From Escherichia virus TH58, in the sequence record MT446423.1: DNA of 64,000 nt; one strand, 5' to 3'. Under the pieces are notes generated by a model that worked only from the letters and a program-made list of their open reading frames with translations, was not told the DNA's origin and did no database searches. The position numbers and the translations under genes were made by a program. Each line of letters opens with the position of its first letter. The stretch's first letter is position 1. Positions 34,424 to 39,095 of the stretch are shown in pieces.

Positions 34424-35158
34424 ATGGAGCTAATCTTTTTAAGTGGCATCAAACGTAGCGGTAAAGACACTACTGCTGATTACATCAATTCAAACTTTAA
34501 GTCCGTAAAATACCAATTGGCATATCCGATTAAAGACGCTCTAGCAATAGCCTGGGGACGTAAACATGCTGAAAACCCTGATGTATTCACAGAGTTGAAA
34601 TACGAATACTTTGAAGGTGTTGGATACGACCGTGAAACACCATTAAATCTCAATAAGTTGGATGTTATTGAATTATTGGAAGAAGCGCTAATTTATTTAC
34701 AAAGTCAATATTTACCAATTAATAATGTTAAAGTATTATCATCATTAGAAGGTGGGTATTCATATCTAGATATTAAACCATATGAAGCCCTGCGTGAAGC
34801 TATAAATAATATCAACGACACATGGTCAATCCGCCGTCTTATGCAAGCCCTCGGTACGGATGTTGTCGTTAATTTATTTGACCGTATGTATTGGGTTAAA
34901 CTTTTTGCATTAAACTATATGGATTATATTGGAAGTGATTTCGATTACTATGTTGTAACCGATACACGCCAAGTCCATGAAATGGAAACCGCTAGAGCGA
35001 TGGGTGCTACAGTTATTCATGTGGTTCGCTCTGGTACGGAATCCACCGATAAACATATTACAGAAGCTGGGTTGCCTATTGAAGAAGGCGATTTAGTTAT
35101 TACAAACGACGGCTCTTTAGAAGAGCTTTATTCTAAAATTGAAACAATCTTAAGGTAA
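34424..35158 (+). CDS. 1: deoxynucleoside monophosphate kinase gp1
   Basis: 244 aa; P-loop GIKRSGKDT at N-terminus; as T4 gp1. Confidence 0.9.
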   Translation: MELIFLSGIKRSGKDTTADYINSNFKSVKYQLAYPIKDALAIAWGRKHAENPDVFTELKYEYFEGVGYDRETPLNLNKLDVIELLEEALIYLQSQYLPINNVKVLSSLEGGYSYLDIKPYEALREAINNINDTWSIRRLMQALGTDVVVNLFDRMYWVKLFALNYMDYIGSDFDYYVVTDTRQVHEMETARAMGATVIHVVRSGTESTDKHITEAGLPIEEGDLVITNDGSLEELYSKIETILR

Positions 35159-37695: not shown

Positions 37696-37769
37696 GGCCC
37701 TGTAGCTCAATGGTTAGCAGCAGTCCCCTCATAAGGGAAAGGTTACCAGTTCGAATCTGGTCTGGGCCA
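37696..37769 (+). tRNA. tRNA with anticodon CAU (Met or Ile2)
   Basis: Acceptor GGCCCTG/CTGGGCC, T-arm ACCAG-TTCGAAT-CTGGT, anticodon loop CTCATAA; no encoded CCA; D-arm non-canonical. Confidence 0.6.
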
Positions 37770-37775
37770 TATATT

Positions 37776-37852
<77 letters not shown>

Positions 37853-37870: not shown

Positions 37871-38215
37871 ATGAAAGGCAATATTTATTTGGTAGTTCAT
37901 GATTTAACGTTTTATTTTAACGAACAGGATACAGTTATTTCCGACCGGTTGATTAATTCGTTATATCAACACGCTGATTACGTTTATTTTAAAAATGAAT
38001 TCGGACATTGGAAGTTTCTTAAAAACCGTTCCGGGTTAACTAGTTTTGAATACTTTGACCGTAAAGACCTTTTAAACGAAATCCCATTGCAACATCGGTT
38101 CCAGAAACGCGAATCATTATATTATTGCCGTCATATACCAAACGCAGAATGTGCTTATGAAGCGATTAATCTATGGCGTCGGCGTCGAGAACAAATTGAT
38201 GATATGCCAAAATAA
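37871..38215 (+). CDS. hypothetical protein
   Basis: 114 aa from ATG 37871 with GAGGA RBS; lies between the tRNAs and the RNA region. Confidence 0.4.
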   Translation: MKGNIYLVVHDLTFYFNEQDTVISDRLINSLYQHADYVYFKNEFGHWKFLKNRSGLTSFEYFDRKDLLNEIPLQHRFQKRESLYYCRHIPNAECAYEAINLWRRRREQIDDMPK

Positions 38216-38520
38216 GAAACCGGGTCGCTACCGGTAAGTCGTCGGACTGATGTTCCCTGGAGTATAGTTCCTCCCACAGTTTTACTGTGTTCTGGTTCTT
38301 TACTATCACAGCTGAAACGGCGCACAGAATTATCGATTCGAGGAAATATCTTTGCCGTAAGCCGAGTAGCGTTTTTGACGGAACGTTCGGATATGGTCGA
38401 GATATGGCCTTTTAAAAATATTGAGTAGCGTCAACTGCTTAATAACCGGGTTCGAATCCCGGCGTTTCGTACAAACACTTGCCTTAGCAGGTGGAACCCC
38501 GACAAGGTTGCCGCAAGGCA
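38216..38520 (+). ncRNA. candidate stable small RNA region with tRNA-like T-arm (possible T4 rnaC/rnaD analogue or decayed tRNA)
   Basis: No credible ORF; CCGGG-TTCGAAT-CCCGG T-arm at 38446-38462 with pairing acceptor-like arms (38398-38404 / 38463-38469); ends at a strong terminator. Confidence 0.25.
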
Positions 38521-38522
38521 TA

Positions 38523-38554
38523 GCCCCTTCCGAAAGGTTGGGGCTTTTTTTTTT
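38523..38554 (+). terminator. intrinsic terminator GCCCCTTCC-GAAA-GGTTGGGGC plus T10
   Basis: GNRA-loop hairpin followed by a 10-nt T-run; one of four near-identical copies. Confidence 0.75.
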
Positions 38555-38596
38555 GGCATAATAAATAGATAAGTTAATTAACTTAGGAAAAGCAAC

Positions 38597-39061
38597 ATGA
38601 AATCATACGCTGAATTTTTGACTGAACAATCTAGTTCAGATGTAAAAGCCGCTGCGATTGCAGCAATTCGAGCAGGTAAATATTCTTACAAAGACGCCTC
38701 TGATGAAGAACGTTTCCGTTTTATTAGAGATTTTAAAGCCGAAGGTTTTACTAATGCTAATACTGTTAGCCGAGTTTTTAAAAGCCTAGCTGCATCAGGT
38801 GAATTGTTCCAGAAAGCTACAGGTAAAGCACCTGCGCCAAAAGCGGACCCTAAAGCCGCTCAAGAAAAAAATATCGCCAAAGGAATTATTTCTAAGTATG
38901 AAGCAATTCTTAAAGAGCTTTTAGTAATCAAATCAGAAGGCCAGAAACTGGCACGAGCACATAGCTTCAAAGATAATCCTCACGCTCATAGCCTTGAGTA
39001 TGTTGAAGATATCCAAAAACTTATTAAAGACCGTATCTGGTCTGCTAAACAAATTAAATAA
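38597..39061 (+). CDS. internal-protein-like protein with capsid-targeting sequence
   Basis: N-terminus MKSYAEFLTE resembles the targeting motif; 154 aa. Confidence 0.5.
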   Translation: MKSYAEFLTEQSSSDVKAAAIAAIRAGKYSYKDASDEERFRFIRDFKAEGFTNANTVSRVFKSLAASGELFQKATGKAPAPKADPKAAQEKNIAKGIISKYEAILKELLVIKSEGQKLARAHSFKDNPHAHSLEYVEDIQKLIKDRIWSAKQIK

Positions 39062-39067
39062 TAGAAT

Positions 39068-39095
39068 GCCCCTTCCTTACGGTTGGGGCTTTTTG
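39068..39095 (+). terminator. intrinsic terminator GCCCCTTCC-TTAC-GGTTGGGGC plus T-run
   Basis: Near-identical copy of the 38523 terminator. Confidence 0.7.

Follow-up and report, generated by a model that had tools for sequence, protein, structure and literature searches.

Organization and identity of the locus

The region described here lies downstream of the tRNA genes of Escherichia virus TH58, in a stretch of 64,000 nucleotides (nt) of record MT446423.1 that is called the window below and whose first letter is position 1 of the coordinates given. The window belongs to a T4-like phage, and for the 16 kb surrounding the locus the match to Escherichia and Shigella phages of the RB69 type is about 95%. 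From 5' to 3', the locus holds two tRNA genes, a small open reading frame (ORF), the orthologues of the T4 RNAs rnaD and rnaC separated by a short spacer, a conserved trailer and an intrinsic terminator (Table 1). In RB69, the order is tRNA-Met, tRNA-Arg, ORF150c, rnaD/rnaC and ORF149c, and it is the same in the window. An earlier reading made from the letters of the DNA, hereafter the sequence-only reading, had described positions 38216-38520 as one non-coding region of about 300 nt and had proposed that it might be the analogue of the two stable small RNAs that T4 encodes next to its tRNA cluster. The identical order in RB69 and the alignment to both T4 RNAs show that this leading interpretation was correct, and the relationship is one of orthology and not of analogy. 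The non-coding stretch is real, but it is made of two RNAs plus a trailer and starts, by homology, at 38212. The same reading had counted two tRNAs here where T4 has eight, in agreement with the two found by ARAGORN and Rfam in the window and the eight of the T4 record.

In the T4 record (NC_000866), two misc_RNA features directly follow tRNA-Arg, i.e., rnaD (“species 2 RNA”, 119 nt) and rnaC (“species 1 RNA”, 139 nt), and the ends of both RNAs in the window were placed by pairwise alignment to this reference annotation. T4 rnaC (70908-71046) and its counterpart in the window are identical at 137 of 139 nt (nhmmer, E = 1.9e-49), and the rnaC covariance model R1 gave one single match in the window, at 165 bits. 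In both phages, rnaC follows rnaD, precedes the same trailer and terminator and lies on the same strand relative to the tRNA genes. One of the two substitutions concerns a pair of the anticodon-position stem, which is U-G here and U-A in T4, while the other falls between two helices of the D-position arm, where the RNA is unpaired. For rnaD (71053-71171 in T4), the alignment covered positions 1-118 of the query, with conserved ends and a variable middle. The two phages share about 45 nt on the 5' side and about 25 nt on the 3' side, the 5' hairpin, the closing stem CGUCG/CGGCG and the UUCCCUG motif, whereas the central hairpin of the window is of unrelated, T2-like sequence, its rnaD is 4 nt shorter and its 3' end reads CACA instead of CACC. 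Besides, the rnaD-rnaC pair directly follows tRNA-Arg in T4, whereas an ORF of 114 amino acids (aa) stands between them in the window, RB69 and T2 likewise having an ORF there.

When 38216-38570 was compared by blastn with 50,697 phage records, 816 of them matched, 679 at 80% query coverage or more; nearly all matches were T4-like phages of enterobacteria. Depending on the query, 762-816 phage records matched rnaC. No family for rnaC or rnaD exists in Rfam. A 2022 paper classes T4 RNAC and RNAD as late-accumulating and cites a Northern validation, the probes described being those for ssrA and RNAC (PMC9697503). The function of both RNAs is described as unknown in papers from 2010, 2022 and 2025 (PMC3014915, PMC9697503, PMC12685909). 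In a 2025 study of experimental evolution (PMC12685909), a T4-like phage was evolved on one semi-permissive host and every line showed the same single-nucleotide polymorphism (SNP) of rnaD; this convergent, adaptive change hints at a host-dependent role. According to their sequences, the two RNAs of the locus are orthologues of T4 rnaD and rnaC, an element that is already known. As a whole, the locus is very probably best explained as rnaD and rnaC orthologues, rnaC being tRNA-derived, followed by the trailer and terminator, which end the transcript of the tRNA region. It represents a rediscovery of T4 rnaD/rnaC in an RB69-type phage, at a place that most database records leave unannotated or cover with small ORFs that are judged spurious below.

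Table 1. Features of the tRNA, rnaD and rnaC region in the window of Escherichia virus TH58
Feature	Position	Strand	Basis or remark
tRNA-Met(CAU)	37696-37769	+	ARAGORN; Rfam tRNA, 57 bits
tRNA-Arg(UCU)	37776-37852	+	ARAGORN; Rfam tRNA, 71 bits
ORF of 114 aa, phrog_3355 (unknown function)	37871-38215	+	Between tRNA-Arg and rnaD; TAA stop at 38213-38215
rnaD (species 2 RNA) orthologue, about 115 nt	38212-38326	+	Alignment to T4 rnaD; first bases overlap the TAA stop of the upstream ORF
rnaD 5' hairpin, ACCGG / loop GUCGCUA / CCGGU	38219-38235	+	RNAalifold; single-sequence fold agrees
rnaD long stem-loop, closed by GUCGUCG (38238-38244) with CGGCG-C-AC (38318-38325)	38238-38325	+
Spacer GAAUUA, 6 nt, predicted RNase P leader	38327-38332	+	AAAUUA in T4; resembles spacers within tRNA arrays
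rnaC (species 1 RNA) orthologue, 139 nt, putative tRNA-derived cloverleaf	38333-38471	+	137/139 identity to T4 rnaC
rnaC acceptor-like stem, 7 base pairs (bp), two internal U.U	38334-38340 (CGAUUCG) with 38463-38469 (CGUUUCG)	+	Covariation
rnaC D-position arm, 3-bp stem AGG/CCU (38341-38343 with 38408-38410) closing a long irregular hairpin	38341-38410	+
rnaC apical loop UUGACG of the D-position arm	38375-38380	+	Proposed 6-bp kissing with CGUCAA, 38429-38434
rnaC GG, immediately preceding the 3' strand of the D-position stem	38406-38407	+	Proposed elbow with T-loop U38452 and C38453
rnaC linker UUUAAAAA, A/U-rich, unpaired in the consensus fold	38411-38418	+	AAAAU core invariant in 24/24 homologues
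rnaC anticodon-position hairpin, 10-bp stem (38419-38428 with 38435-38444), 6-nt loop CGUCAA	38419-38444	+
rnaC T arm, CCGGG / UUCGAAU / CCCGG	38446-38462	+	100% paired; two covarying pairs
3' tail U-A-C-A, in the place of discriminator N73 plus a degenerate CCA	38470-38473	+	Homologue comparison
Conserved 50-nt 3' trailer with hairpin CACUUGC-CUUA-GCAGGUG (38476-38493)	38472-38521	+
Intrinsic terminator, AGCCCC-UU-CC-GAAA-GG-UU-GGGGCU (hairpin 38522-38545) + U10	38522-38554	+	Sequence, fold

Secondary structure of rnaC

The structure of rnaC was studied on 24 distinct homologues, which together represent about a dozen genera of T4-like phages, using alignments A3 and A6, the latter holding the 24 sequences from which model R1 was built. 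The sample covers Tequatrovirus, Mosigvirus, Kagamiyamavirus, Winklervirus, Tegunavirus, Gelderlandvirus, Karamvirus, Kanagawavirus, Mosugukvirus, Moonvirus and Marfavirus, as well as Edwardsiella phage PEi20 and several uncultivated contigs. Folded as a single sequence, rnaC of the window has a minimum free energy of -50.2 kcal/mol (z = -4.55), a stability reached by none of 200 shuffles, and its minimum-energy fold is the consensus fold of the family, with all helices present. RNAalifold gave a four-arm cloverleaf with compensatory double changes in 25 of its 40 pairs. Pairs were then counted on A6 for the full model, which includes two proposed tertiary contacts and comprises 49 pairs, with (i) 500 shuffles and (ii) registers slid by 1-3 columns as controls. 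In the full model, 93.7% of cells were paired and 30 of the 49 pairs had changed on both sides; no shuffle reached the observed values, and the slid registers were paired at 35-45%. This cloverleaf model, like the view of rnaC and rnaD as independent modules that is developed below, is a contribution of the present analysis, and priority over older literature is not claimed.

Each arm of the cloverleaf contributes to the covariation. In the acceptor-like stem, a C-G pair becomes A-U in PM2, a G-C pair alternates with A-U (seven sequences), and in TG1, L023 and PM2 the two U.U mismatches are replaced by U-A and by C-G or U-A. The sequence-only reading had recognized the 3' strand of this stem, 38463-38469, but had paired it with 38398-38404. 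The latter proved wrong as 5' strand, being paired in 61% of cells across the 24 homologues, a value equalled by 289 of 500 shuffles. This pairing, no better than shuffles, was rejected, and the true partner is 38334-38340, where compensatory changes are found. Another candidate for the acceptor strand, 38378-38385 with 38463-38470, is implied by a match to the Rfam tRNA-Sec model that is discussed below. It is perfect in the window, but its G.U becomes A.C in most relatives with no covariation, and it was rejected as well.

According to the same reading, neither a D arm nor an anticodon arm could be drawn. Instead, a covarying 10-bp hairpin was found at 38419-38444 and a 3-bp stem, which covaries as well, closes a long arm at 38341-38410, in the positions of the anticodon arm and of the D arm, respectively. 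The D-position arm is built from the helices 38348-38351/38400-38403, 38355-38358/38393-38396, 38363-38365/38387-38389 and 38370-38374/38381-38385. Compensatory double changes occur in every one of them, and the pairs are kept in both of the two sequence types in which this arm exists. The anticodon-position hairpin shows double changes in 8 of 10 pairs, and one nucleotide, 38445, separates it from the T arm. The T arm is located exactly where the sequence-only reading had placed it, and two pairs of its stem covary, one changing from C-G to U-A and the other from U-A to G-C. A T loop reading UGCAUCC or UGCAUGC instead of UUCGAAU, with the T stem kept, was observed at L006:1197-1346, L033:2496-2645, L037:4198-4347 and L011:5946-6108. 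At the 3' end, the A3 homologues share the tail pattern U-any-C-A, which was also seen in 23 of the 24 sequences of A6. A true U-CCA is encoded in kv_tblp5, Marfa and PM2 and U-ACA in the window; rnaC as annotated in T4 stops at the A equivalent to 38471.

Proposed tertiary contacts in rnaC

Good comparative evidence points to an intramolecular kissing interaction between the loops UUGACG and CGUCAA, i.e., between the tip of the D-position arm and the loop at the anticodon position. The putative helix is paired in 99.3% of cells over the 24 sequences. Both loops are otherwise invariant and they change together in two separate lineages, namely to UUGGCG/CGCCAA in kv_tblp5 and Marfa (A-U to G-C) and to UUGAUG/CAUCAA in TG1 and L023 (C-G to U-A). 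If formed, this contact would make the anticodon-position loop unavailable for decoding, and no anticodon would be exposed.

A second contact, between the GG of the D-position arm and the T loop, would correspond to the elbow of tRNAs. G38406 and G38407 could pair with U38452 and C38453, the order being that of G18-psi55 and G19-C56 in tRNA. The G.U pair becomes C-G in LC53, L033 and L037, the three sequences of the alignment whose T loop is non-canonical, and the G-C pair is invariant. These changes are suggestive of an elbow being kept in rnaC.

rnaC as a probable tRNA derivative and its predicted maturation

In several phages (EcS1, LC53, TG1, CF-SP2, EcL8g, PM2 and kv_tblp5), rnaC is found without an adjacent rnaD inside tRNA arrays, separated from the preceding tRNA by 5-7 nt and/or from the following one by 7-16 nt, as illustrated by the order tRNA-Phe, rnaC, tRNA-Trp. 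Moreover, a search with the rnaC covariance model also picked up genuine phage tRNAs (Gln, Ile, Ser and Met), aligned from end to end at 20-25 bits. In these alignments, the rnaC leader falls on AAUAAU or AAUUA leaders, acceptor stem on acceptor stem and T arm on T arm, the 10-bp hairpin on the anticodon arm and the UaCAAuu tail on N73-CCA-AUU. Because it combines a T arm with an acceptor stem and because its own model matches tRNAs, rnaC is probably of tRNA descent. Judged on its sequence, it is a tRNA derivative in which the D arm would have expanded to a hairpin of about 70 nt and a 10-bp stem capped by a 6-nt loop would have taken the place of the anticodon arm.

With canonical tRNAs (RF00005), rnaC shares a 7-bp acceptor stem formed from both ends, an abutting 5-bp T stem with the 7-nt loop UUCGAAU, and a tail at the position of N73-CCA. 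It also shares with them its location and spacing in tRNA arrays, the possible GG/T-loop elbow and the end-to-end model alignment. However, rnaC is 139 nt long, lacks nucleotides 8-9, has a linker of 8-9 nt in place of nucleotide 26 and keeps a variable region of 1 nt. The D arm of a canonical tRNA has 3-4 bp and a loop of 7-11 nt, whereas in rnaC a 3-bp stem closes an insert of 64 nt (38344-38407) with a hairpin of about 60 nt. Likewise, the anticodon stem has 5 bp and a 7-nt loop in tRNAs, against 10 bp in rnaC and a 6-nt CGUCAA loop that is apparently paired to the tip of the D-position arm. Neither ARAGORN nor the Rfam tRNA model called rnaC, ARAGORN reporting just the two upstream tRNAs. 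The sequence-only reading had put forward Infernal and Rfam as a check. At the gathering threshold, this check recovered the two upstream tRNAs, but no family matched the element itself. With E up to 10, the search of 38100-38650 returned matches at chance level only (PyrR, Yfr10, isrK and tRNA-Sec, the latter with 16.6 bits, E = 1.8 and the acceptor mis-assigned).

The tRNA-like domain of tmRNA also brings together an acceptor stem and a T arm from the two ends of a longer RNA. In contrast, rnaC has only 139 nt, without a tag reading frame or a series of pseudoknots; no tmRNA was detected by ARAGORN or Rfam, and rnaC contains no conserved ORF. Other tRNA-shaped RNAs that do not decode are mascRNA of MALAT1 and the tRNA-like RNAs of murine gammaherpesvirus 68, which are released by RNase P from a longer transcript, the herpesvirus ones being virus-encoded. 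These RNAs have no sequence relationship with rnaC, belong to other hosts and are devoid of an expanded D arm or a loop-loop contact, and the processing of rnaC by RNase P is a prediction.

We infer a tRNA-like maturation of rnaC because of (i) its position in tRNA arrays, (ii) its tail, (iii) the cross-detection of tRNAs by its model and (iv) its 5' end in T4, which is annotated 1 nt upstream of the first acceptor pair. In the proposed scheme, rnaD and rnaC would be cut from the polycistronic transcript of the tRNA region by the tRNA-processing machinery of the host. A cut by RNase P at, or 1 nt from, 38333/38334 would release the 5' end of rnaC and free the 3' side of rnaD, and the 3' end of rnaC would be trimmed to the acceptor stem as in tRNAs, possibly with repair of the CCA.

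Possible roles of rnaC and alternative explanations

The acceptor, T-arm and elbow face of rnaC appears to be kept while the anticodon position would be buried, which points to a non-decoding mimic of tRNA. The mature RNA may thus be a stable, non-decoding molecule that would engage a tRNA-binding protein through this surface, e.g., as a decoy or titrator in late infection. That rnaC binds some tRNA-recognising protein in this manner is the weakest step of the proposed mechanism and is put forward tentatively. More specifically, T4-like phages may use rnaC to occupy or decoy a host tRNA-binding factor late in infection, with the anticodon-position loop sequestered by kissing, but this proposal must be considered doubtful. 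Candidate targets would be a defence toxin attacking tRNA acceptor ends, a processing enzyme or the CCA-adding enzyme. If true, the decoy reading would give a function to the 50-year-old “species 1 RNA” and define a new class of phage counter-defence RNAs. In any case, the comparative model, with its cloverleaf, loop-loop contact, elbow and CCA-position tail, provides concrete targets for mutation on an old question, and it offers a basis for the correct annotation of rnaC in hundreds of T4-like genomes.

Several observations weigh against the picture of two stable RNAs, one of them a processed mimic of tRNA. Here, rnaD and rnaC as discrete stable RNAs are predicted by homology, with ends taken from the T4 annotation. 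The 5' end of rnaC, as annotated in T4, precedes the canonical RNase P site by one nucleotide, and the annotated 3' end reads ..GUA, with no CCA. Since rnaD is preceded in this phage by an ORF and not by a tRNA, its 5' end would need another endonuclease or a promoter. Regarding the structure, most acceptor stems contain the two U.U mismatches, 75% of their cells being paired, and the kissing contact is backed by two compensated positions. The covariation at the elbow is suggestive only, because it possibly reflects one single evolutionary event. The loss of the canonical T loop in some lineages argues against a strict need for enzymes that read this loop. Some relatives can do without rnaC, since Dhakavirus CLBP2 lacks it and VR20 has an ORF cassette in its place. 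Finally, the decoy idea is built on the anatomy of rnaC as deduced from sequence comparison.

Instead of, or besides, acting as a tRNA mimic, one or both RNAs could be base-pairing regulators of host or phage mRNAs, which would apply to rnaD more readily than to rnaC. In rnaD, the invariant and apparently single-stranded segments UUCCCUG and ACAGCAGAAA flank a hypervariable hairpin, the convergent SNP described above affects this RNA, and the term “small regulatory RNAs” is used by the authors of PMC9697503. Against this, neither RNA ends in its own terminator hairpin and U-tail, as is usual for Hfq-dependent small RNAs, and the conserved loops of rnaC appear to be paired with each other, so that such a regulatory role is unlikely. 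Regarding a host origin or target, a blastn search of 38212-38560 against 5,426 complete E. coli genomes gave no match. A motif scan of bacterial and archaeal genomes returned at least 120 loci; among the matches listed, none fits the rnaC profile beyond the seeded motif (19 bits or less), and these matches are due to chance.

Units resembling tRNAs serve as processing punctuation in other systems. Hence, the locus could also be a cis-acting module for the processing or stability of the tRNA-region transcript, providing RNase P/RNase E punctuation and 3' protection, the stable species being by-products without function in trans. That the region closes the transcription unit on its 3' side and is immediately followed by the terminator would agree with such a role, as would the retention of trailer and terminator even where rnaC is absent. 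It is nevertheless improbable: rnaC of other genera lies within tRNA arrays, in which real tRNAs already act as punctuation; its conserved loops, A-rich linker and loop-loop contact exceed the needs of a processing signal; and rnaD stands alone beside a tRNA in an unrelated phage subfamily.

The sequence-only reading had also considered a decayed tRNA, i.e., a pseudogene persisting without function beside the tRNA cluster. The T arm, the acceptor stem and the cross-matches of the rnaC model to tRNAs would fit such an origin, and so would the failure of ARAGORN and the Rfam tRNA model to call rnaC. However, purifying selection on rnaC is strong. The RNA is nearly invariant between the window and T4 while the centre of the adjacent rnaD has been replaced, which is the opposite of decay. 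The compensatory changes in 30 of 49 pairs include arms that are foreign to tRNAs as well as the loop-loop contact, rnaC is retained in about a dozen genera, and T4 rnaC was detected as a stable RNA according to PMC9697503. A decayed tRNA is thus very improbable.

That the region encodes small proteins, as implied by automatic annotations, is hardly credible: overlapping ORFs of 42, 46 and 63 aa do exist (38287-38415, 38421-38561 and, on the minus strand, 38330-38521) and several records carry coding sequence (CDS) features over the homologous DNA (“hypothetical protein” in T2, HX01, Marfa and NM4.3), but no frame is open across the homologues, every frame has at least one stop across rnaC in the window, in line with the absence of a credible ORF noted in the sequence-only reading, indels of 1 and 2 nt separate homologues, substitutions track base-pairing and not codons, and the element occupies the interval between two tRNAs in several genera. 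CDS calls over rnaD/rnaC DNA were observed at L002:1572-1843, L050:1011-1154, L181:166-303 and L178:96-269, those of Marfa even being provided with ribosome-binding sites. Such calls are very likely spurious.

Structure of rnaD and modularity of the locus

The structure of rnaD was derived with RNAalifold on alignment A4. In its 5' hairpin, a C-G pair becomes U-A in LTH01 and an A-U pair becomes G-U or G-C. The long stem-loop contains the conserved internal motif UUCCCUG, of which UCCCUG is invariant, and a hypervariable apical hairpin. The CGUCG/CGGCG core of its closing stem is invariant in 12 sequences; the outer pair changes from G-C to A-U in KP182, and the inner stems are compensated in the group formed by EnC15, KP182 and Ursula.

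The two RNAs do not always occur together. In Dhakavirus CLBP2 and contig L053, rnaD is joined straight to the trailer and terminator, without rnaC. In Gaprivervirus VR20 (L047:917-1421), an ORF cassette replaces rnaC, and the trailer and terminator are kept. This replacement consists of about 120 nt with two similar G+C-rich hairpins, GGGCGGTGCGCCC and CGGATGGTGCATCCG, plus an ORF of 127 aa. In Karamvirus (EnC15), Jiaodavirus (KP182) and Citrobacter phage Ursula, an rnaD-like element is found between tRNA-Asn and tRNA-Asp. Besides, a complete rnaD is located immediately after tRNA-Met in vB_EcoM-LTH01 (L049:1193-1293), a member of the Vequintavirinae and hence not a T4-like phage. The LTH01 version of rnaD is covered at 80% or more in only six records, which suggests horizontal transfer between phage subfamilies. 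According to these arrangements, rnaD and rnaC are independent modules of tRNA arrays, rnaD travelling without need of rnaC.

Two further segments were noticed near rnaD. Between the rnaD-like element and tRNA-Asp, about 140 nt are conserved and unannotated at L055:673-816 (EnC15), L056:~675-806 (KP182) and L057:~675-818 (Ursula). Because indels of 7-8 nt separate them, these copies are unlikely to be coding; the Ursula record has a CDS there. This segment is a candidate third small RNA embedded in tRNA arrays. In contig L053, a short rnaD-like sequence, AAGCCGUCG...CGGCGCAAC, that keeps the closing-stem motif lies between tRNA-Arg and the full rnaD (L053:325-385) and looks like a truncated tandem duplicate of the latter.

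Trailer, terminators and neighbouring genes

The trailer is nearly invariant in T4, T2, RB32 and Kha5h, and with the terminator included its fold has a z-score of -2.84; no informative covariation was found among its homologues. It was considered a module distinct from rnaC and treated as the 3' end of the precursor. The strong terminator that the sequence-only reading had placed at the end of the region was recovered, with the stem AGCCCC..GGGGCU followed by T10. It was missed by a simple terminator scanner because of the internal UU/UU mismatch. In agreement with the arrangement proposed here, the Kha5h record annotates rnaC, plus a terminator, at the homologous positions.

Regarding transcription initiation, a sigma-70 promoter scan found none on the + strand near rnaD or immediately upstream, and the nearest upstream late-promoter motif on the + strand is TATAAATA, at 34801. 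The flanking ORFs have no Pfam match, and the PHROGs that they match are all of unknown function. By its position and size (345 nt), the 114-aa ORF is the counterpart of RB69ORF150c. ORFs are also present at the tRNA-Arg/rnaD junction in T2 and HX01, and none is present there in T4, RB32 and Dhakavirus, where rnaD lies directly 3' of tRNA-Arg. The 114-aa ORF looks like an insertion into a junction that was once contiguous.

The tRNA called Met(CAU) at 37696-37769 may be of the Ile type, the RB32 record mentioning Ile identity elements on the T4 tRNA with a CAU anticodon. Downstream of the locus, the stem of the next terminator, at 39068-39094 (GCCCCUUCC-UUAC-GGUUGGGGC + U5), is almost identical to that of the terminator at 38522-38554, and the two look like a reused terminator type.

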